DNA of 64,000 nt from Bdellovibrionales bacterium (GCA_041740515.1 JBGSLV010000027.1:6144-70143), one strand, 5' to 3'. Shown: positions 3 to 22,452, numbered from the stretch's first letter. Program-made: numbers and translations. The notes: generated by a model not told the origin, from the sequence alone.

Positions 3-701
3 GCCCATCCAAGATGTGGTGACAGCCAATTATCCATTGGGACCTGGGGTCTATCCCTCGGTGATGAACCTGAGATTGCTGGCGTAAAAGGTTCTGGCAC
101 CATTTTATTGTCCCACTGCCCTATGAAATGTCCTTCGTGTCACAATCCAGAGATGGTGGCTCAAGGGCACAGGTCATCACTTCATGATGTCATTGAGATT
201 TGCTACACCTTACTCGAATGGGGGGCAGAGAACATTCAGTTTCTGTCTCCTACGGTTCACATGGCGAAGCTAATTCCTATTTTAACTTTCTTAAAGTCTA
301 ATCGCTTTCCCATCCCTCTAATTCTAAAAAGCTCTGGAATAGAAAACCTAGACTACTTACGCCAACTCGCGGGTCTTGTGGACATTTATTTACCTGATTT
401 CAAGTATGGTCCGAACTCAGAATTTGCAAAAAGGAGTGGTTTTAAAAACTATTTTGAACTGGCCCAAGAAAATATTCATGAGATGATTCGACAAGTTGGA
501 CCGCCGAAGTATAAGAATAAGCAAACTTCAGGGGAAGTTCAGGATCGGCAACCGCCGATTTGCCTTTCTTCCGGTGTGCTGATTCGACATGTGAAAGCTC
601 CGATTCCGGAGCAGGAGAGACAGCATATTATAGATTTTCTCGGCTCTGTCAAAGAAGTCGCTCTGATATCAATAACAGATAATTTTAATAATATGGAGTG
701 A
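3..701 (+). CDS. radical SAM enzyme, pyruvate formate-lyase-activase-like (PflX-type); 5' end cut by window edge
   Basis: The frame of ORF 108..701 stays open back to base 3. The upstream translation ...GVKGSGTILLSHCPMKCPSCHNPE carries the CxxxCxxC radical-SAM cluster motif. Confidence 0.65.
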   Translation, partial: AHPRCGDSQLSIGTWGLSLGDEPEIAGVKGSGTILLSHCPMKCPSCHNPEMVAQGHRSSLHDVIEICYTLLEWGAENIQFLSPTVHMAKLIPILTFLKSNRFPIPLILKSSGIENLDYLRQLAGLVDIYLPDFKYGPNSEFAKRSGFKNYFELAQENIHEMIRQVGPPKYKNKQTSGEVQDRQPPICLSSGVLIRHVKAPIPEQERQHIIDFLGSVKEVALISITDNFNNME

Positions 702-782
702 TCAGAAAATTCAAATAAAAATTTTTTTTAAAGTTCGAGTGTTTTTTTCTTTATAGCATGTGCGTTTTAATAGGGTGGTATT

Positions 783-1388
783 ATGAAAAAAATCGTTATG
801 TTATTTGTAGTCATATATGTCTGTTCAGTTCCCTTGATTGGCATGGGGTACATGCATTCAGATGAAAAGATAGTTCAGCTCAATAAAGAGTACGATGATA
901 TACAACGAACTCTGAATGGTTTTTCGAAGAACTTAAGTGGTGAATTAGTTGCTAAATATAAGATATTGAGAAGTGCATTGTCGATTTATGCTAACGCACA
1001 TGCAGACAATGAATCGAATTCGCCAGGTACTGGATGGGCCGATGCGAGAGCTTATCATGAGAAAGCGATTCTAAAAAATTTCATAGATTATTTTAAAAAA
1101 CTAGAGTCACAACAGATGAGTGCCCACTCTGACTTAGATTTTAAGAATAAAGATGTGGAATTAAACAGGTTGTATCAGTCTATTCAGAAAAATAAAAATT
1201 TTGATACAGGCGAGGCCGCAGCAACTAGCAGACTTGGAATTAAAAATACCCAGCGGAGTTGGATTAAATATCGGGATGTATGGGTCTCATTTGCAATTTT
1301 AAAATTTCCATCAGTAGACACGCACTCGTTGAAAACTAATCTGACTGCTGATCGAATCACGATACTCGCAAAGATTAATACAGATTAA
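783..1388 (+). CDS. secreted DUF1311 / LprI-like (lysozyme-inhibitor-like) protein
   Basis: N-terminal hydrophobic signal. C-terminal motif NTQRSWIKYRDVW matches the Q-R-x-W-x-x-Y-R-D signature of DUF1311. Confidence 0.55.
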   Translation: MKKIVMLFVVIYVCSVPLIGMGYMHSDEKIVQLNKEYDDIQRTLNGFSKNLSGELVAKYKILRSALSIYANAHADNESNSPGTGWADARAYHEKAILKNFIDYFKKLESQQMSAHSDLDFKNKDVELNRLYQSIQKNKNFDTGEAAATSRLGIKNTQRSWIKYRDVWVSFAILKFPSVDTHSLKTNLTADRITILAKINTD

Positions 1389-1438
1389 AATTATCCTGGT
1401 TTAAAAAAATTGCTAAATTTAACGGAATTACAGATTAA

Positions 1439-1536
1439 TAAGTTCAATATAGTAAGATGGCTGACTTATAAAACATTGAAATTGTTTAAGAAAAAAACTT
1501 GCGGGCCAAATAGGACGCGCTTAGAACTTATTTGCT
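1439..1536. repeat. cassette-boundary repeat, copy A (~98 bp)
   Basis: Aligns along its length with 2564..2661 and 3179..3274. Shared blocks are AAGTTCAA ... AAAAYATTGAAATTGTT.A.GAAAAAA ... GCGGGCCAAATRGGACGCG ... GAACTTATTTGCT. Confidence 0.85.
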
Positions 1537-1563
1537 GACCCCAAAGTATTGTGACGATATTCT

Positions 1564-2514
1564 GTGGACATGATTCGTCATGCAAATATAGCGATCGCAA
1601 AAGTGGCTGTAAAATATTGGAATGGTGATCCAGATTCAATCACTCACGTAGGGAACCACGCGAGTTCAATTTTTACATTCAAAAACAAAGATGATAACTT
1701 ACAGATACTTCGATTCACTGACCCCTTCTTTAGGTCCCTATCCGATACAAATGCGGAACTTGCTTTTGTAAATCATTTGTATTCAGAAAATGTCCCAGTT
1801 GCGCCAGCTCTAAATACAAGTGAAGGCTTACTTGCATTTGAACTTCAAACAAAAAGCGGTTTTTTTATTTGTTCTTCAATCAAATTTGCTGAGGGCATCC
1901 ATATTGATGAAAGTTCCCAAGGTTGGAACATTCGGTTTTTTAAGGAATGGGGTAGAAATATTGCTTTGATCCATGCGTCTTCAATCCGATTCGATACAAG
2001 CAACTCCACAACTGTTCGATGGGAATGGAAAAATGAACTCCTGTTTCGACGAGCAGAAGTTTTAATTCCTCCCGAAGATACTGAGTCGAGAAGAGAGTTG
2101 CAGGAGATATTCAGCGAGTGCGAATGCCTTTCAAAATCTAACAATGATTTTGGATTAATACACGCAGATCATGCGCCACAAAATTTCAGATATGCTATTG
2201 AAGCAAATCGTATTACAGCTTTTGACTTTGGTAACTGCTGTTATCATTGGTTTATATCAGACCTTGCAATTAGTCTTTCGACCATTAGAAGAAAGCCAAA
2301 TAGAGAGGAAATTAAGGAAGGAATATTAAATGGCTATTCCTCGATTCGAGCACTTCCAAGAGATTATGAAAAGCAAATAGATTTATTTATAAGGCTGCGG
2401 GTGCTTTATTTTTACCTTTCACGTTTACATATGTGGACTAATCCAACAGAACAACAAAAGAGGGAGCTTTTGCAGATTCGTAATCGTGTTCATTCAAAAA
2501 TCGGGTGGGGTTGA
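1564..2514 (+). CDS. APH/choline-kinase family phosphotransferase
   Basis: Catalytic-loop motif LIHADHAPQNF (HxDxxxxN) followed by FDFGN (DFG-like), typical of the aminoglycoside phosphotransferase fold. The listed start is GTG. Confidence 0.6.
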   Translation: MDMIRHANIAIAKVAVKYWNGDPDSITHVGNHASSIFTFKNKDDNLQILRFTDPFFRSLSDTNAELAFVNHLYSENVPVAPALNTSEGLLAFELQTKSGFFICSSIKFAEGIHIDESSQGWNIRFFKEWGRNIALIHASSIRFDTSNSTTVRWEWKNELLFRRAEVLIPPEDTESRRELQEIFSECECLSKSNNDFGLIHADHAPQNFRYAIEANRITAFDFGNCCYHWFISDLAISLSTIRRKPNREEIKEGILNGYSSIRALPRDYEKQIDLFIRLRVLYFYLSRLHMWTNPTEQQKRELLQIRNRVHSKIGWG

Positions 2515-2563
2515 CTCTTTTTTTCCCAACGCAATTGGCATTTAGAAAGGAATTTAAAAACTA

Positions 2564-2661
2564 CAAGTTCAATACCTCAAAATGCCCTAACCCGTAAAAT
2601 ATTGAATTTATTGAAGAAAAAAAGTGGCGGTACAAATGGGACGCGTTTGAACTTATTTGCT
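2564..2661. repeat. cassette-boundary repeat, copy B (~98 bp)
   Basis: Same element as 1439..1536. Terminal boxes AAGTTCAA (2565..2572) and TTGAACTT (2647..2654) are perfectly complementary. Confidence 0.85.
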
Positions 2662-2781
2662 TAAAAGTGGGTGACAATTTCGGTTACTTTTAATGTGTAA
2701 TAGTGTGCGATGTGATTTAAAGTATTTGGCCGTTGACCGAAGCTTGATGTAGTGACCTAATAATTATTTAAGGAGAAATTT

Positions 2782-3120
2782 ATGAAAAGTTGTTTTATTT
2801 TTTTATTAGCTATTTTTTGTTCAAATTTTGTTAGCGCAGAAGTTTTTTGTGGAAAGCTTAAGGTAGGTTCTTTCAACAGTAATCCTTCAATTCAATATCT
2901 TTTAGTATCATCTACTGGTGATATTTCAGAATTAGACTTCGGTGGAGTTGCCAGTTCTCAACAAGAAATTGATGTTCTCCTACTTAAGGGATCTATTGCC
3001 AATTTTTTAGTTGATGGTCAAAACTACTGCTTTGGCGGAAAAGCTTCACAAGTTGCAAGTTATCCAGCAATTTCTTTTAATTGCGTTGAAGTTGGTGTAA
3101 CTTCAAATATGTGTAACTAA
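2782..3120 (+). CDS. small secreted Cys-containing hypothetical protein
   Basis: GGAG 8 nt upstream of the ATG. Clear signal peptide MKSCFIFLLAIFCSNFVSA. No recognisable domain. Confidence 0.45.
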   Translation: MKSCFIFLLAIFCSNFVSAEVFCGKLKVGSFNSNPSIQYLLVSSTGDISELDFGGVASSQQEIDVLLLKGSIANFLVDGQNYCFGGKASQVASYPAISFNCVEVGVTSNMCN

Positions 3121-3178
3121 GCTTATTCAAATCCAAAAAATTGCATCCTTTAACAGATTAAAAGCGTGCAGTATAATC

Positions 3179-3274
3179 GAAAGTTCGAAACCATAAAATG
3201 GCCTTAAAGTTAAAATATTGAAATTGTTCAGGAAAAAATTGGCGGGCCATTTGGGATACGAACCCTTATTTTAT
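3179..3274. repeat. cassette-boundary repeat, copy C (~96 bp)
   Basis: Same element. Its 3' part TGGCGGGCCATTTGGGATACGAACCC looks like the reverse complement of a tRNA acceptor/T-arm. It overlaps the stop of the MntA-like gene. Confidence 0.8.
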
Positions 3275-3570
3275 GCAAATCTTTTTCGGTCAACTAAATA
3301 GCCATCTTTATAAGAATCAGCAAATTCATTGATTTGAACTAAATCAATTTTATAAGGAAAATTACTATTAGTGAGTTTTTCTTGAAGTTCGCAAATTACT
3401 TTTGACAAGTCTGTATTAGACTCAACCATTAAGTCTAAATCAGAAAATTTTTGATGATCACCTCTGGCGCGTGAGCCATAACACCACACTTCGGCACCAT
3501 ATGTTTCCAAAGGTTTTACAACTTCAGTTAATATATAATCAAAATACTGGGGGGATAAACCAAACTTCAT
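3271..3570 (-). CDS. mntA: MNT-type nucleotidyltransferase (type VII antitoxin MntA-like)
   Basis: Motif GSRARGDHQKFSDLDLMV (GSxxRG...DxD) of minimal nucleotidyltransferases. 4-nt ATGA overlap with the upstream HEPN gene. Confidence 0.8.
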   Translation of the reverse strand: MKFGLSPQYFDYILTEVVKPLETYGAEVWCYGSRARGDHQKFSDLDLMVESNTDLSKVICELQEKLTNSNFPYKIDLVQINEFADSYKDGYLVDRKRFA

Positions 3571-3929
3571 TTTGTACTTAACACTTCTGCAAGCTTTTGA
3601 AGATGAGGTAAAAATTCACAGGCGAAATTATAGACCATCTCTGCAATATCTTCTTTGTAGGTATGTGATGAAAGATTTCGTTGATCTTTAGACTTTAGCC
3701 ATAACTCGACATCGTCGATATAACCGCTATGTGCCATTTCACGAACTACATCTTTAGGTGCAGCCGTTGAAGTCCCTATGATTTTTTTTGAAGTTTTCCA
3801 AACAAGCTCTACGGAAAAATCAAATCTCTGGATAACAGAATCACGAATAAATTCATTTTTAGGCTGTTCAATGGCTAGGTTAAGTTGACGGACAGCTTTG
3901 TTAAATTCTGATATCAAAGTTTTTGACAA
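3567..3929 (-). CDS. hepT: HEPN-domain protein, HI0074-family nucleotidyltransferase substrate-binding subunit (HepT-like toxin)
   Basis: About 120 aa, helical. Contains RNLSSHTY (Rx4-6H HEPN motif). Translationally coupled to the MNT gene. Confidence 0.8.
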   Translation of the reverse strand: MSKTLISEFNKAVRQLNLAIEQPKNEFIRDSVIQRFDFSVELVWKTSKKIIGTSTAAPKDVVREMAHSGYIDDVELWLKSKDQRNLSSHTYKEDIAEMVYNFACEFLPHLQKLAEVLSTK

Positions 3930-4029
3930 AGCGAAATCCTTAAAACTGTTTAATATAATTGTATCTTATAAAATAAATTAAGGTAGTAAACCATATTTTT
4001 TAACAATTAAGGTTTGAGTATTTTGAGAC

Positions 4030-4075
4030 GCAAAAATTGGCGGGCCAAATGGGACGCGTTTAGAGCCGATGTGCT
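4030..4075. repeat. cassette-boundary repeat, copy D (3' half only)
   Basis: GCAAAAATTGGCGGGCCAAATGGGACGCGTTTAGAGCCGATGTGCT matches the 3' half of copies A-C. The 5' half is absent. Confidence 0.75.
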
Positions 4076-4185
4076 CAAATTGCATGCAGTGTAAAATCGC
4101 TTAAAACTATAAATTAGTCATTTTGCTATTTAAGGTAGCCATTGCGCTATCAAAAATATAGCCACTTACTCTTTGGACCTACTTT

Positions 4186-4647
4186 TTAAGTTAAAGTTTT
4201 CTCTATGAGATAACTTTGATTTATAAATTCATCACTATGAAATTTGAAGGTATTGTCGATGCTTATATAATCTAATTTTTTGTAGCTTGGAACGACAAAT
4301 GGGCAACTATTATATAGGAATACATTGAATGTGAATTTTTTGTCTATTTCTTCAAGTCTCCAGTCCATTTCGATATTGCCGTTTTTAGTTCCTGTTTTAA
4401 CAGGATGTTTTCTGCTGAATTCGTAACTTGTTTCATTTGTTCCTAAATTTATAATTAATTGAAGAGTATGAATTCCAGTTAGCACTTTAAAAAGCAAATT
4501 TGGATCACCTGGTGGATCGTCGTAATCTAGTAACTGAGATATATCTATAGCTAATATACTAATATCTTCGACTTTCACAATTCCTGAATTTTTATAATTT
4601 AAAAAGGAATTAGCTTTATCGACGAGAGCGTTTCCAACTCGGAGCAT
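4186..4647 (-). CDS. hypothetical protein
   Basis: 153-aa ORF, co-oriented 50 bp downstream of 4698..5048. No recognisable motif. Confidence 0.4.
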   Translation of the reverse strand: MLRVGNALVDKANSFLNYKNSGIVKVEDISILAIDISQLLDYDDPPGDPNLLFKVLTGIHTLQLIINLGTNETSYEFSRKHPVKTGTKNGNIEMDWRLEEIDKKFTFNVFLYNSCPFVVPSYKKLDYISIDNTFKFHSDEFINQSYLIEKTLT

Positions 4648-4697
4648 GGCTTGGTCATCGTAATTCCCCGAACCAACTCCAACTTTAGTTTTTGGAT

Positions 4698-5048
4698 TTA
4701 CTTGAATTTCTCTTCCTTATTTGATTCATTTTCACCAATTCTTGTGGAAATACATTCAACCCAACGAAAACGATCATTTTCTAACTCAATTTTAAAGTCT
4801 GGACCTTCTTTTGTGTTTTTAAGGATTTTAAAACTATTTTTATTTAAAAATTCAAATACTCTTAGTTCCCACCACCGTTCAGTAAAGTTATTAGGAAATT
4901 GGCTTATAAAGTCTTTGGTATTTGCACATACATTTTTGAATTCATTCCATTGTGCTTCAATATAGGCTTTAATGTCGGATCTATTCTCTGAATTTCTAAC
5001 AAGTGTGTTTGCTTTTGATCCATTTTCGCTCTCAAACAATTCAGACAT
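4698..5048 (-). CDS. hypothetical protein (weak PD-(D/E)xK-like segment)
   Basis: 116-aa ORF. GPDFKIELENDRFRWVECIS loosely resembles a PD...ExK nuclease core, but the Lys is missing. Confidence 0.4.
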   Translation of the reverse strand: MSELFESENGSKANTLVRNSENRSDIKAYIEAQWNEFKNVCANTKDFISQFPNNFTERWWELRVFEFLNKNSFKILKNTKEGPDFKIELENDRFRWVECISTRIGENESNKEEKFK

Positions 5049-5281
5049 TTAAAGACCTCAATATTCTAAGCAAATCGTAAACTTAAATTAAGATTTTTTA
5101 AACTTATAATTATATGTCAATTAATTCACAGTCGATGTAAATTTCTTAAGAGTATATTTTTTTATTATTCTTAATAATTGTGATCAATTTAGAAATAGCT
5201 TGTACCTTTAAATTAACTTATCTTTAAATTTTTTAACCCGAAACAATATAAACTAATAAATCGGATACTTAAGGCTTAGTT

Positions 5282-5350
5282 CATTTTCAAACCTCCAAAA
5301 ATTTATAGTTGATCTTTGCAGAACTATAAATTTTTGGAGGTTTGAAAATG
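5282..5350. promoter_or_regulatory. 29-bp perfect inverted repeat (11-nt loop) covering the SD and ATG of the downstream gene
   Basis: 5282..5310 CATTTTCAAACCTCCAAAAATTTATAGTT is the exact reverse complement of 5322..5350. The right arm contains GGAGG (5336..5340) and ATG (5348..5350). Confidence 0.9.
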
Positions 5351-5653
5351 AAGACATTTAGAACATTGGAATTGGCGATAGAGTTTTATGGATTGGTGGA
5401 AAAATGTGAAATCAAAGGTCATTTACGTAATCAAATTTTGAGAGCAAGCTCTTCGGTTTCACTAAACCTGGCAGAAGGCAATGCAAAATCCAGTACAAAA
5501 GAAAAGAAGCGTTTTTATCAGATTTCGTATGCTTCATTACAAGAATGTAAAATCATATTTAAATTAGCAAAGTTCGAAGATAAGGTTTTGATAGATACAG
5601 CGGATAAGCTTGGAGCTTGGCTATACAACTTACTGAAATCAAACATCGGGTAA
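5342..5653 (+). CDS. four-helix-bundle protein, 23S rRNA intervening-sequence protein / Avd-like family
   Basis: FRTLELAIEFYGLVEKC...RASSSVSLNLAEGNAK...KRFYQISYASLQEC is the characteristic pattern of this family. The likely true start is ATG 5348, 8 nt after GGAGG. Confidence 0.75.
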   Translation: MKMKTFRTLELAIEFYGLVEKCEIKGHLRNQILRASSSVSLNLAEGNAKSSTKEKKRFYQISYASLQECKIIFKLAKFEDKVLIDTADKLGAWLYNLLKSNIG

Positions 5654-5723
5654 ACAACTTGTATACAAGTACTGGAATACCGGTATTCGGGTATACATGT
5701 ATACTGGTATTCAGGAATTTTAA

Positions 5724-5800
5724 TGGCGGAGCGGACGGGACTCGAACCCGCGACCTCCGGCGTGACAGGCCAGCATTCTAACCAACTAAACTACCGCTCC
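5724..5800 (-). tRNA. tRNA-Asp (anticodon GTC), CCA encoded
   Basis: Reverse complement GGAGCGGTAGTTTAGTTGGTTAGAATGCTGGCCTGTCACGCCGGAGGTCGCGGGTTCGAGTCCCGTCCGCTCCGCCA folds as a cloverleaf. Acceptor GGAGCGG/CCGCTCC, anticodon loop CTGTCAC, T-arm GCGGG-TTCGAGT-CCCGT. Confidence 0.95.
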
Positions 5801-9426: not shown

Positions 9427-10517
9427 TCTGAAACTCCCTGCTGGCTGTGATAATTAAATTTTTTGGGCGAGCCCCATTTGTTATTCTGATACAAACTTTG
9501 ATTATATACACGAATGCTTTTGGTATCTAACTGCCATGGGCTATTAGGATTATTAAAGTTCTTAGAAAAGACCAAGGCGTCCAAAAACGACCAGCTTCTT
9601 CGGGGATGAAAGTAATTGGTCCCCCGACAGTTCTCGCAGCCCACGAGATGAGATATCATATAATCTTTGCCTAAATTTTTGAAATACTGATGATTTTTCT
9701 CTTCAAAAGATGTGATATTAAAATCACCTCCGGCCATAACTAAATTGGTTTTACCTCTTTTATCCATCAGTTTTTTTAGCTGCTCTAAGGCTTGTTGTCG
9801 GGCGGGACTAGGTGTGCCTTGCGAGGGGAATTGTACACCAAAGACCGTTATGGGCGTTTGGTCTGGCAACAAAAAAGTGGCTTCCAAAATACCTCGAGTT
9901 TGAGGAGGCTTGTTAAAATTAAATTTTCCCTTTGGACTAAATTTTAAAATATGCAGCTTCGGGTCTGACTTTAGGGGCCATTTACTGAGGATAGCCACAT
10001 CAATGCCGCGCTCATCAGGGCCTTCAAGCAAAACAGCGGGGTGTTTATAATGAGGGTTTAAAAAATGGGTGCGAAACTCTTCTAAGACTTGAAAATTTTC
10101 CACCTCTTGAAAAATAATAAGATCCGGTCCCACCTCATTATAACTATTTAGGATCACATCCGCTAGACGCTTCATTTTGGACTTTAAAACTCTAGGGCTC
10201 CAATCCAAATTTAAACACTGCGATTTCCAATCCTTTGATTTTAGACTGTGACATTTGCTGCTAATATTTGGATTACGTTTTTTTGTGCTTAAAGGCAGAA
10301 AAGTTTCGTCAGCCTTTAAGGGATCATCCTCAGTATCAAATAAATTTTCTAAATTGTATGTCATCACACTAGCTCGGGTTGACGTGCTGTTCGAAACATC
10401 AATGGATTTTTTACTGGTTTGTTTTATTGCCAAACTTGAGTTTAGATATTGCAAAAAAAGTACAAAGCTAACAAAACTTAGTATAAGAAATTTTTTAAAA
10501 CTTAAATTTGCCTGCAT
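9363..10517 (-). CDS. secreted endonuclease/exonuclease/phosphatase (EEP) family protein
   Basis: Signal peptide. N-terminal MTYNLENLFD and C-terminal GVSDHWPMVAEF are typical EEP motifs. Confidence 0.75.
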   Translation of the reverse strand: MQANLSFKKFLILSFVSFVLFLQYLNSSLAIKQTSKKSIDVSNSTSTRASVMTYNLENLFDTEDDPLKADETFLPLSTKKRNPNISSKCHSLKSKDWKSQCLNLDWSPRVLKSKMKRLADVILNSYNEVGPDLIIFQEVENFQVLEEFRTHFLNPHYKHPAVLLEGPDERGIDVAILSKWPLKSDPKLHILKFSPKGKFNFNKPPQTRGILEATFLLPDQTPITVFGVQFPSQGTPSPARQQALEQLKKLMDKRGKTNLVMAGGDFNITSFEEKNHQYFKNLGKDYMISHLVGCENCRGTNYFHPRRSWSFLDALVFSKNFNNPNSPWQLDTKSIRVYNQSLYQNNKWGSPKKFNYHSQQGVSDHWPMVAEFFLNSSRSKGTLK

Positions 10518-11153
10518 TTTCTGTGTTCCTTAAAAAAAAAATGATTATAATAATATCTCCGACTTGAAAACTTATAATATTTTATAATAAGAAGTTTTGC
10601 TTTAAGTTGTTTTTTTAAAATTTAATGAAGTAGAAATAAACTTTGCAATTTTAAAAACAAAATTATTAAAATAAAATCATAATAATCAAAGAAAGCTAAA
10701 ACCTTTAAATTCAAAATAAAATATAATTTAAAAAAATATTAATTTACGAGATGCTATAATCTTAAAGTGTTAATTTCTAAAAAAAATTAACATTCATAAA
10801 GTTGCAAGAACTAATCTTTTAAACTTTTTCTTTAATTGCAAACTTTTGTGTTAAAACATTAACATGTAAAATACCTGATGTAGCTACGTTTCCTGGATCA
10901 AAGCTGAATTCATCGGACACCGGGAGAGGTTGGAGTTTTGTAATAAGGTCCCTGATTTTAAGCAAATTTTAGAAAAATTAAAAATTAGAAATCCACTTAT
11001 TTAACCAAGTGAAGTCAGTTTGCTTAATTTTTGTTAAGCTTTGGTTAAATCTTGCACTTGGTCGAAGATTTTTTTAAGTTTTTTCTGGTCCTTTATAAAT
11101 GGCAGGTAGTATCGTTTGTACTCGTTATCTTTCATGAAGGGGAATGAATTCTG

Positions 11154-21204: not shown

Positions 21205-22452
21205 CTAAATCAGATCAAGCTTTATTCTATCTTCAAAATGAATTGAGAGTTGCGCTATCACCTGACCCCAGTTCCATTTAGGAGTTTTCCATCTTTGTGA
21301 AGTGTCTTTTATAGCCAAATATAGGATTTTGAATAGGGCGTCGTCTGTTGGAAACAAGGCTCTGTTTTTTGTAATCTTTCGCATTTGCCTATGAACATTT
21401 TCGACAATGTTTGTTGTATAAATAATCTTTCGAATGGGATGCGAGTATTTAAAATAGCTTGCAAGTGTTGGCCAATTGGATGTCCAAGAATTTATAACTA
21501 CAGGATACTTTTCACCCCATTTAATTTTTAGATCCTCAAGATTTTTGATGGCTAATTCTTCAGTCGCAGCTTGGTAAACAAGTTTTAAATCTTTTAAAAA
21601 TTCCTTTTGATGTTTTGAGCCAACGTACCTCAGAGAATTTCTAATTTGGTGGACAATGCAGGTCTGCACTTCAGTTTTAGGATAGATGCTCTTGATAGCA
21701 TCGGGAAAGCCTTTAAGCCCATCCACGCAGGCAATTAGAATATCACTGACACCTCGATTTTGAAGGTCCGTTAAAACAGAAAGCCAAAAAGTAGAGGATT
21801 CATTTTCGCCAATGTAGATGCCTAAAACGTCTTTCATGCCATTGTTGTCGATAGCAAGACAAGTGTAAGCCGCTTTACTTTTAATTTTACCATCAACTCT
21901 GACTTTAAAGTGGATAGCATCAAAAAAGACGATGGGATAAATAGCCTCTAAGGGTCTGGATTGCCACTCTTTAGCATGATCCAAAATCTTCTCAGTGATG
22001 CTAGAAATAGCTGTGGGCGAAATCTCAAGGCCAAAGTAGACGTCCTTTACATGACGTTCAATATCCCGGGTGGTCATGCCTTTGGCGTACATTGATATGA
22101 TTTGCTCTTCTAGTTTTGAACTAACCCCTTCATATTTTGGTACAGCTTTGGGCTCAAAGGTTCCTTCGCGATCTCTTGGGATATCAAGGTTAACTTTTCC
22201 ATGGGTGGTTTTAACAGATTTCTTGTAACTTCCATTTCTAGAGTTTGAGGTCAGTTTGGAATTTATATCACCAGGGGCATAACCCAAATGATCTTGAAGC
22301 TCTGCTTTAAGCATAGTCTCCATTGTATTTTTAAGCATGAGCTGAAGCGCGCCACCTTCTGAAAAAAGGTCATTCATTGTTTTGGCCTGTTTTAAAGCTG
22401 AGTTTACTTCTTCGGGATCGAATAGGAACTTATTTTTTTGGTCTTTGTGCAT
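21205..22452 (-). CDS. IS256-family (Mutator-type) DDE transposase
   Basis: 415 aa. The pattern ...LKAELQDHLGY...RNGSYKKSVKT..G.V.L.IPRDREG.FEP..V...ISMYAKGMTTRDI...FFDAIHFKVR...VLGIYIGENESSTFWLSVLTDLQNRGV.DILIACVDGLKGFPDAI...T.VQTCIVHQIRNS... is diagnostic of IS256 transposases. Confidence 0.92.
   Translation of the reverse strand: MHKDQKNKFLFDPEEVNSALKQAKTMNDLFSEGGALQLMLKNTMETMLKAELQDHLGYAPGDINSKLTSNSRNGSYKKSVKTTHGKVNLDIPRDREGTFEPKAVPKYEGVSSKLEEQIISMYAKGMTTRDIERHVKDVYFGLEISPTAISSITEKILDHAKEWQSRPLEAIYPIVFFDAIHFKVRVDGKIKSKAAYTCLAIDNNGMKDVLGIYIGENESSTFWLSVLTDLQNRGVSDILIACVDGLKGFPDAIKSIYPKTEVQTCIVHQIRNSLRYVGSKHQKEFLKDLKLVYQAATEELAIKNLEDLKIKWGEKYPVVINSWTSNWPTLASYFKYSHPIRKIIYTTNIVENVHRQMRKITKNRALFPTDDALFKILYLAIKDTSQRWKTPKWNWGQVIAQLSIHFEDRIKLDLI

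Follow-up and report, generated by a model that had tools for sequence, protein, structure and literature searches.

We analyse here a variable region in the chromosome of a Bdellovibrionales bacterium (GCA_041740515.1, JBGSLV010000027.1:6144-70143; the whole stretch of 64,000 nucleotides is called the window), in which copies of a short non-coding element lie, all in the same orientation, between small genes near a tRNA-Asp gene. In the window the region comprises, after the 3' part of a radical-SAM-like gene, the genes of an LprI/DUF1311 protein, an APH-family phosphotransferase, a small secreted protein, an MntA/HepT-like toxin-antitoxin pair, two open reading frames (ORFs) and a four-helix-bundle protein (assigned with Pfam), and then the tRNA-Asp gene (Table 1). 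This gene content is the one given by the original prediction, which was made from the sequence alone, and the toxin-antitoxin unit is also inverted as had been claimed, with both of its genes on the minus strand. The original prediction interpreted the span 705-5800 as an integrase-less, integron-like array of small gene cassettes anchored at the 3' end of tRNA-Asp. As discussed below, we find a different explanation for the element to be the best one.

The sequence searched is a composite, about 70 kb in all, of the window and the upstream stretch of the Logan contig L003 (run SRR28170465), which was reached by exact-protein look-up. Over 5309 nt the sequences of L003 and the window are identical; the first position of the window is L003 6033, so that 6032 nt are added upstream. 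The copy counts given below cover this composite of the source genome and 20 kb of contig L025, together with pattern scans of sequence collections. The contigs L001 and L025 belong to the Bdellovibrionales metagenome-assembled genome GFS_9291, and L009, L011, L021 and L015-L020 are contigs of relatives. The profile search for the element was made with an nhmmer model built from the copies.

A repeat search of the window gave a direct-repeat family of four members (1469-1522, 2595-2648, 3210-3263 and 4008-4061), and nhmmer gave matches at 1438-1539, 2562-2663 and 3179-3278 and a partial one at 4032-4066, all on the plus strand, with no further copy elsewhere in the 64-kb window. The coordinates and the common orientation that had been claimed for the repeat are thus recovered by both searches; from left to right, we call these copies c1 to c4. 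The 21-nt core, TGGCGGGCCAAATGGGACGCG, has three occurrences at up to three mismatches and none in 100 shuffles. Two more copies, c0a and c0b, are found upstream of the window on L003, and therefore the radical-SAM-like gene itself lies within the array, which extends from the window by 4.7 kb or more in the upstream direction and continues beyond the upstream end of L003. The span 705-5800 therefore does hold the copies ascribed to it, but the array is not confined to it. The six copies of the source genome fall within 8.8 kb of the 70-kb composite (p≈1.3e-4 under uniform placement) and have the same orientation in six cases out of six (p≈0.03), irrespective of the orientation of the flanking genes, while the remaining 58 kb, with about 45 other intergenic spacers, contain none. 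The element starts 18-59 nt 3' of a plus-strand stop codon, except for the partial copies c0b (121 nt) and c4, which comes after the inverted toxin-antitoxin unit.

The order of the units in the left part of the array is a 380-aa protein, c0a, HlyIII with a 99-aa secreted protein, c0b, then an AAA ATPase (IetA-like), a 201-aa protein, a DUF1257-like protein, DUF2997, the radical-SAM-like protein and LprI, and then c1. The right part continues from c1 with APH, c2, the secreted protein, c3, the inverted toxin-antitoxin pair, c4, the inverted 153-aa and 116-aa ORFs, the four-helix-bundle gene and tRNA-Asp. Eleven successive genes of the array are co-oriented. No copy is detectable between the radical-SAM-like and LprI genes, nor in the two spacers that separate the four-helix-bundle gene from the two-ORF unit and from the tRNA gene. 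The statement that the same repeat separates successive units is therefore right for the boundaries at c1 to c4, but it does not hold for several other boundaries, where no copy can be detected.

Table 1. Genes, element copies and other features of the array, in window coordinates unless L003 is given
Feature	Position	Strand	Remarks
c0a	L003 1283-1387		full copy; nhmmer
c0b	L003 2873-2909		core + right arm; nhmmer; 121 nt past stop codon
Radical-SAM-like gene, 3' part	108-701	+	Pfam; last gene of five-gene co-oriented module
Possible vestige of a copy	730-738	+	9-nt match AAAGTTCGA to left end of element, between radical-SAM-like and LprI genes; tentative, read by eye, missed by nhmmer
Unit 1, LprI/DUF1311 with signal peptide	783-1388	+	Pfam PF07007, E=5e-8
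c1	1439-1536	+	full: left arm, core 1499-1519, right arm; 51 nt past LprI stop codon; nhmmer E=4e-24
Unit 2, APH-family phosphotransferase	1564-2514	+	Pfam PF01636, E=5e-14
c2	2564-2661	+	full, core 2625-2645; 50 nt past APH stop codon; nhmmer E=3e-26
Unit 3, 112-aa protein with signal peptide	2782-3120	+	no family match
c3	3179-3274	+	left arm + core 3240-3260; similarity to other copies stops at about 3262
Unit 4, inverted toxin-antitoxin pair	3271-3929	-	Pfam
Unit 4, NTP_transf_2/MntA-like gene	3271-3570	-	
Unit 4, NTase_sub_bind/HepT-like gene	3567-3929	-	
c4	4030-4075	+	core 4038-4058 (exact consensus) + right arm; nhmmer E=5e-7
Unit 5, 116-aa + 153-aa ORFs	4186-5048	-	no Pfam annotation
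Four-helix-bundle protein	5342-5653	+	23S_rRNA_IVP / TIGR02436; Pfam, NCBIfam
Palindromic spacer	5654-5723		between four-helix-bundle gene and tRNA-Asp 3' end
tRNA-Asp(GTC)	5724-5800	-	conserved edge of variable region

The element is about 100 nt long, and up to about 140 nt in c1 and c3. With the comparison anchored at the core, a GC-rich core of about 20 nt, GGCGGGCCAAATGGGAC.CG, is seen to be kept by all seven known copies, i.e., the six of the source genome and one on contig L001. In every one of the seven, the core has 7-10 identities out of 10 in its first 10-nt bin and likewise in its second, and in the arms the identity drops to the background. An A-run stands 5' of the core in most copies, with c0b having TTTAAATT instead. 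Both arms are present in c0a, c1 and c2. The copies c0b and c4 consist of the core and the right arm (GCGYTTARA...TGCT), c4 having at most about 25 nt of weak left-arm similarity, with the leftmost 40 nt or so absent. The copies c3 and L001 consist of the left arm and the core, the similarity being gone after GGGAYACGAA, in both cases at most about 10 nt from the stop codon at which a convergent gene ends (for c3 the NTase gene, with its stop codon at 3271-3273). The inverted toxin-antitoxin unit is located exactly between c3 and c4, the left-arm-plus-core and the core-plus-right-arm copies, which if joined give a full site. Such complementary halves are what is expected if a core-bearing module has inserted into a full site.

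The identity over whole copies is 65-73%, with 67-73% for pairs within a genome and 65-69% for pairs between the genomes. Since the pairs within a genome are barely closer than those between genomes, each copy has a long separate history, as is expected for cassette-borne sites. The copies are thus old and independent, apparently maintained by selection that acts on the core. A coding role of the element was also considered and rejected, the short ORF across c1 losing its frame in c2.

The cassette-like layout raises the question of whether the locus is an integron or a cluster of attC sites lacking an integron-integrase (CALIN), the latter having by definition two or more attC sites (Cury et al. 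2016, PMC4889954). An attC site is recognised by its palindromic R-box/L-box structure with extrahelical bases rather than by its sequence, and a nearby intI is missing from most CALINs as well (PMC4889954). Complementary RYYYAAC...GTTRRRY pairs with a spacing of 50-150 nt do not occur in the 11.7-kb array, and the three found elsewhere in the 70 kb are at chance level. The inverted termini of the element, AAGTTC...GAACTT, read GTT...AAC, which is opposite to the order in attC. This confirms, from both the motif-pair scan and the order of the termini, the earlier remark that the ends of the repeat do not fit attC cores. Moreover, RNAalifold on the five full copies gives -1.64 kcal/mol with five pairs and no compensatory change, i.e., no conserved hairpin; the minimum free energies of the single-stranded DNA do not surpass those of shuffles, the z-scores being -2.5 to +0.8 for the individual copies and -0.03 to -1.7 for the extended intergenic elements; and Rfam cmscan at E<=1 gives no match on the repeats. 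The copies thus share sequence and not structure, which is the reverse of attC.

By these tests the locus is therefore not an integron or CALIN: of the designation as an integron-like array, the layout remains and the identity does not, there being no attC motif pair, no conserved hairpin and no integrase in the sequence scanned. If it were nevertheless a genuine but divergent integron cassette array, with attC sites that escape simple tests, the co-oriented single-gene units each with an element of about 100 nt, the inverted toxin-antitoxin unit and the missing nearby intI would all be as in a sedentary chromosomal integron. However, with no attC motif pair in the array, termini in the wrong order, no covarying pair and only weak folds, the probability of this is close to negligible.

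The element is rare. A degenerate pattern fitting c1 to c4 has two matches in 185,579 species-representative genomes, one true (L001) and one by chance inside leuS. The core pattern gives only four chance matches in the JGI metagenomes, three at 61-64% GC and one, core-only, at a contig end, and none in IMG/VR; blastn against PLSDB and INPHARED also gives none. All seven known copies, in two genomes, lie in variable accessory DNA. The L001 copy, at 1327-1414, is a single copy in 20 kb (L025). A ParE/Phd pair directly precedes it, and the convergent core gene rpiB has its stop codon 6 nt away. Relative to its closest relative L021 (rpiB 76% identical), the homology of L001 stops at 1322 and resumes at 3496, and in the gap L021 has 4 kb of unrelated genes and no element, which represents a replacement instead of an empty site. 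The toxin-antitoxin pair of L025 is only about 27% identical to that of the window, and the two pairs are therefore not one cassette shared between the genomes.

In relatives of the source genome, L009 keeps the tRNA-Asp gene and its right-hand neighbours, with the array side wholly different (proteins of 60 aa and 245 aa, a multicopper oxidase, PPK2 and an ars cluster) and with no element, and the contigs of three closer relatives all end at the tRNA gene. Homologues of the APH gene are distributed across Bdellovibrionota with a graded identity of 45-63% and differing neighbourhoods, also between the strains L015 and L016, and the six loci examined (L015-L020) have neither the element nor any other repeat family. 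A mobile "APH cassette" was therefore rejected, the contexts being varied and free of the element.

The copies c1, c2 and c3 have terminal inverted repeats of 6-9 bp (AAGTTCAA...TTGAACTT, with one possible compensatory change), which are absent from c0a and from the L001 copy. Such termini in three full-length copies, the length of about 100 nt, the AT-richness, the intergenic location just 3' of genes, the restriction of the family to a lineage, the old and diverged copies and the lack of a recombinase are all consistent with a passive intergenic repeat, of the kind of repetitive extragenic palindromic (REP) sequences, miniature inverted-repeat transposable elements (MITEs) or neisserial intergenic mosaic elements (NIMEs), which would have spread or been duplicated locally in a recombination-prone island. 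It would have played no part in gene acquisition, though homologous recombination between its direct repeats could later delete or swap DNA.

We consider the passive repeat unlikely, and grade it as a serious rival. By contrast to what it would lead one to expect, six co-oriented copies stand in 8.8 kb, with none in the other spacers of the 58 kb, and the low copy number and the rarity, with one strict match in the L001-type genome representative, speak against a family of the REP/MITE type. It had been foreseen that the repeat might prove to be a generic one scattered genome-wide; this is not what is found in the sequence available, as the 58 kb of adjacent core genome have no copy and the sole other copy is at the edge of a variable segment. 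Moreover, no target-site duplications are visible, with the conservation extending past the inverted repeat into ATTTGCT; a stable or conserved stem-loop is lacking; and the conservation is maximal in the internal core rather than at the termini.

Alternatively, the conserved core could serve in cis regulation or protein binding, such as an operator, an element of the 3' untranslated region, or a weak bidirectional terminator or insulator would, the copies resembling one another because of a common regulatory context. This is consistent with the sequence-conserved GC-rich core being flanked by an A-run and, on its other side, by a short T-run, with the core on the minus strand being followed by T7-8 and the convergent gene ending just before the core in c3 and L001, and with the consistent place after stop codons. 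However, the terminator scan is negative at every copy and there is no Rfam match; the best core hairpin has 3+2 GC pairs with an internal loop and is lost in c2, c3 and L001; and the co-orientation irrespective of gene orientation, as well as the partial copies, would be left unexplained. Note also that the other 58 kb do not contain the core motif, which is thus not the site of a general regulator. We therefore regard a regulatory role as improbable. A terminator, a promoter and a known RNA were also tried as candidates in their own right and rejected, the scans and Rfam being negative at the copies.

We then consider the tRNA-Asp gene. The original prediction suggested, besides the anchoring, that cassettes might accrete by serial site-specific integration at the tRNA-Asp 3' end. 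On such a view the repeats would be attachment-site scars that stem from the tRNA 3' end, with each incoming island pushing the older ones outward. The array is indeed on the 3' side of the tRNA gene, in the expected orientation. With TGGCGG..., the core resembles ...CCGCCA in reverse complement, and 14 of 20 positions match the tRNA 3' end in register; c3 mimics a T-loop (GGGTTCGTATCCC); "ttcaggaa" is common to the tRNA 3' flank and the left arm; and a marginal similarity to the palindromic flank of the tRNA gene is seen in the left flank of c0b, with a score reached by 7 of 500 shuffles. However, in local alignment to the 3' part of tRNA-Asp with its flank, c1, c2, c3, c4 and L001 score no better than shuffles that keep the GC-rich and AT-rich halves, and cmscan gives no partial tRNA match at any copy. 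The copy closest to tRNA-Asp is 1.65 kb off, and no integrase is located next to the tRNA gene, the neighbour of which is the four-helix-bundle gene. Within 8-20 kb of the L001 copy there is no tRNA gene at all.

The comparison with relatives bears on the same point. The synteny of tRNA-Asp, abhydrolase and penicillin amidase is kept in both L009 and L011, the neighbouring abhydrolase of L011 being 57% identical to that of the window. L011 has directly at the tRNA 3' end a spacer of short palindromes of the same kind (GATATC-type) and a truncated homologue of the four-helix-bundle gene (the C-terminal 40 residues or so, about 59% identical by reading the translation), which is preceded by a hairpin with a 22-bp stem (for these features, L011 300-358 and 121-165). 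As the four-helix-bundle gene and the palindromic spacer are common to L011, the tRNA-proximal DNA is ancestral and not the newest cassette. The anchoring at the tRNA 3' end therefore does not hold, and tRNA-anchored serial integration, with the core-tRNA similarity failing the shuffle test and the tRNA flank being shared by L011, is largely refuted; we give it very little probability.

For a recombinase, Pfam scans were made of the genes of the array, of the upstream 6 kb and of the window ORFs of at least 120 aa minus three long ORFs (880-1362 aa). As had been stated for the window, no intI or other recombinase is found by these scans or by six-frame probes, and none is found in the 6 kb upstream either. 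Six-frame tblastn and HMM probes with two tyrosine recombinases of relatives gave nothing in the 70 kb, not even a remnant, and for the array proteins without annotation, Pfam, NCBIfam, PHROGs and PADLOC give no match that resembles a recombinase. The sole transposase, of the IS256 family (Transposase_mut, intact, 21205-22452 on the minus strand, E=7.5e-111), is 15 kb away. The array runs on upstream, and any platform or recombinase would more plausibly be located on the upstream side. Separately, two Bdellovibrionales relatives have, conserved in syntenic position upstream of yceD-rpmF-fab, a tyrosine recombinase consisting of only the catalytic domain (179-221 aa; L025 3243-3908 and L021 1363-1902), which is Xer/IntI-like and below all NCBIfam cut-offs. 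The L025 gene adjoins a toxin-antitoxin pair of the NTase_sub_bind/NTase type and is about 6-7 kb away from the copy of the element.

Taken together, our best explanation takes the element for a rare, lineage-restricted, low-copy boundary sequence, the functional part of which would be the core of about 20 nt. On this reading the core may be a site-specific recombination site, recognised in double-stranded form by an enzyme with its gene elsewhere in the genome. We hold this to be a possibility of somewhat less than even chance, and the evidence for it is architectural and comparative, not mechanistic. In our model, small gene modules with one copy of the element each would be inserted singly into resident copies, site-into-site. 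The outcome would be a co-oriented array in a variable region that ends by chance at the pair of tRNA-Asp and four-helix-bundle gene and that is not built from tRNA-Asp. More tentatively still, and with some doubt, the locus could represent a previously undescribed cassette-accretion platform in Bdellovibrio-like bacteria, with sites of about 100 nt, a double-stranded core in place of a folded attC, a trans-encoded recombinase and integrase-less arrays in chromosomal hotspots, which would be analogous to integrons in function and unrelated to them in mechanism.

Several observations weigh against a recombination site. Among the Pfam-scanned ORFs of the window and the 6 kb upstream there is no tyrosine or serine recombinase and no PF00589, and no recombinase can be tied to the element. 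The dyad symmetry of the core is weak (5 of 8 positions by inspection), unlike that of typical core sites of tyrosine recombinases. The pair of c0a, a full copy, and c0b does not have the complementary pattern of c3 and c4, and since c4 keeps weak left-arm similarity the breakpoints are not strictly identical. The variable segment of L001 has a copy at one edge only. With the six APH loci having no element, gene and element have not been seen to move as a unit. The known copies number only seven, and a presence/absence polymorphism with copies at its limits is not observed, the collections containing no close strain (exact-protein look-ups gave SRR28170465 as the sole sample).

Further observations concern the genes of the region. 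The five-gene module that the radical-SAM-like gene closes (L003 3053-6733, i.e., window -2979 to 701) encodes an AAA ATPase, a 201-aa protein, a DUF1257-like protein, DUF2997 and the radical-SAM-like protein; its ATPase matches the IetA-like family of PADLOC at 2e-29, and the module may be an uncharacterised defence or modification system. Just left of c3, a near-consensus sigma-70-like site (3150-3177, plus strand, TTAACA-16-TATAAT, 11 of 12 positions) aims through c3 into the convergent toxin-antitoxin operon and may drive an antisense transcript. In unit 5, the 116-aa ORF matches just the N-terminal third of phrog_8571 (366 aa) and of PADLOC PD-T7-1, and together with the out-of-frame downstream 153-aa ORF it may be one disrupted gene.

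A perfect inverted repeat of 31 bp with an 11-nt loop (5280-5352), inside which L003 terminates, precedes the four-helix-bundle gene. Since its right arm holds the ribosome-binding site and the ATG of that gene, a transcript over both arms would bury the start site. The spacer that follows the gene is a run of short perfect palindromes, GAATACCGGTATTC and GTATACATGTATAC. Further to the right, an extremely AT-rich intergenic stretch (about 10400-11000, 18-22% GC) lies between an exo/endonuclease-phosphatase gene and the next ORF. As regards the APH neighbourhoods, the near-identical Bdellovibrionota strains L015 and L016 (53-55% GC) differ in the block of small genes right of the APH-LysR pair (126, 94 and 36 aa versus 153, 138 and 138 aa); there are no repeats at the boundaries of the block, and thus small-gene turnover in the phylum occurs also without the element.

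To our knowledge, integrons are the only well-characterised builder of single-gene cassette arrays, and they depend on folded attC sites and IntI. The mobile elements of predatory bacteria are poorly known. If the element is a recombination site, an integron-like layout that lacks attC and has a core defined by its sequence would point to more than one evolutionary origin of cassette-style accretion, and the core motif would serve as a handle for finding the responsible recombinase in predatory bacteria. Should the element prove to be a passive repeat, the locus would be no more than a small variable island next to a tRNA gene, and of local interest. In either case the generality is limited by the rarity, with seven copies in two genomes and none in the metagenome, viral, plasmid or phage collections.

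Finally, we compare the locus with known systems. With the REP sequences and the bacterial interspersed mosaic elements (BIMEs) built from them, MITEs and NIMEs, it shares short, non-coding, lineage-specific intergenic repeats 3' of genes, some with terminal inverted repeats, but here the repeats are low-copy, clustered and co-oriented, with no stable stem-loop, no target-site duplications and internal conservation.

In the accretion of cis-mobilizable elements (CIMEs) by integrative and conjugative elements (ICEs) or islands at the 3' ends of tRNA or other genes, as with ICESt1/CIME of Streptococcus thermophilus, integrase-less units grow in tandem at att sites. Similar features here are the units without recombination genes, the co-oriented direct repeats, the adjacent tRNA gene and the proposed site-into-site growth with a recombinase in trans. 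By contrast, the repeats here are not copies of the adjacent tRNA 3' end, the tRNA-proximal DNA is ancestral, the units, at 0.6-1.1 kb and up to 3.8 kb, are much shorter, and no donor element with an integrase is known.

The pdif (XerC/D) sites of Acinetobacter plasmids are 28-bp dyads (11-6-11) with an orientation that alternates around each module. As with pdif, small discrete modules, often of toxin-antitoxin or single accessory genes, are bounded by short sites, and the recombinase would here too be encoded elsewhere; unlike pdif, the sites here are all co-oriented and have no clear dyad (5/8 by inspection) and arms of about 40-60 nt.

Integrons and CALINs differ from the locus in that here there are no R''/R' cores and no R/L-box hairpin, the primary sequence being kept instead around an internal GC-rich core, and in that here some units hold 2-5 genes and some boundaries have no copy. 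What the locus has in common with integrons and CALINs is that the array is co-oriented, that the units are small, mostly single-gene and functionally unrelated, each then followed by a repeat of about 100 nt in one orientation, that a toxin-antitoxin unit is inverted, that no integrase is nearby, and that the element is chromosomal and lineage-specific like the sites of sedentary integrons.

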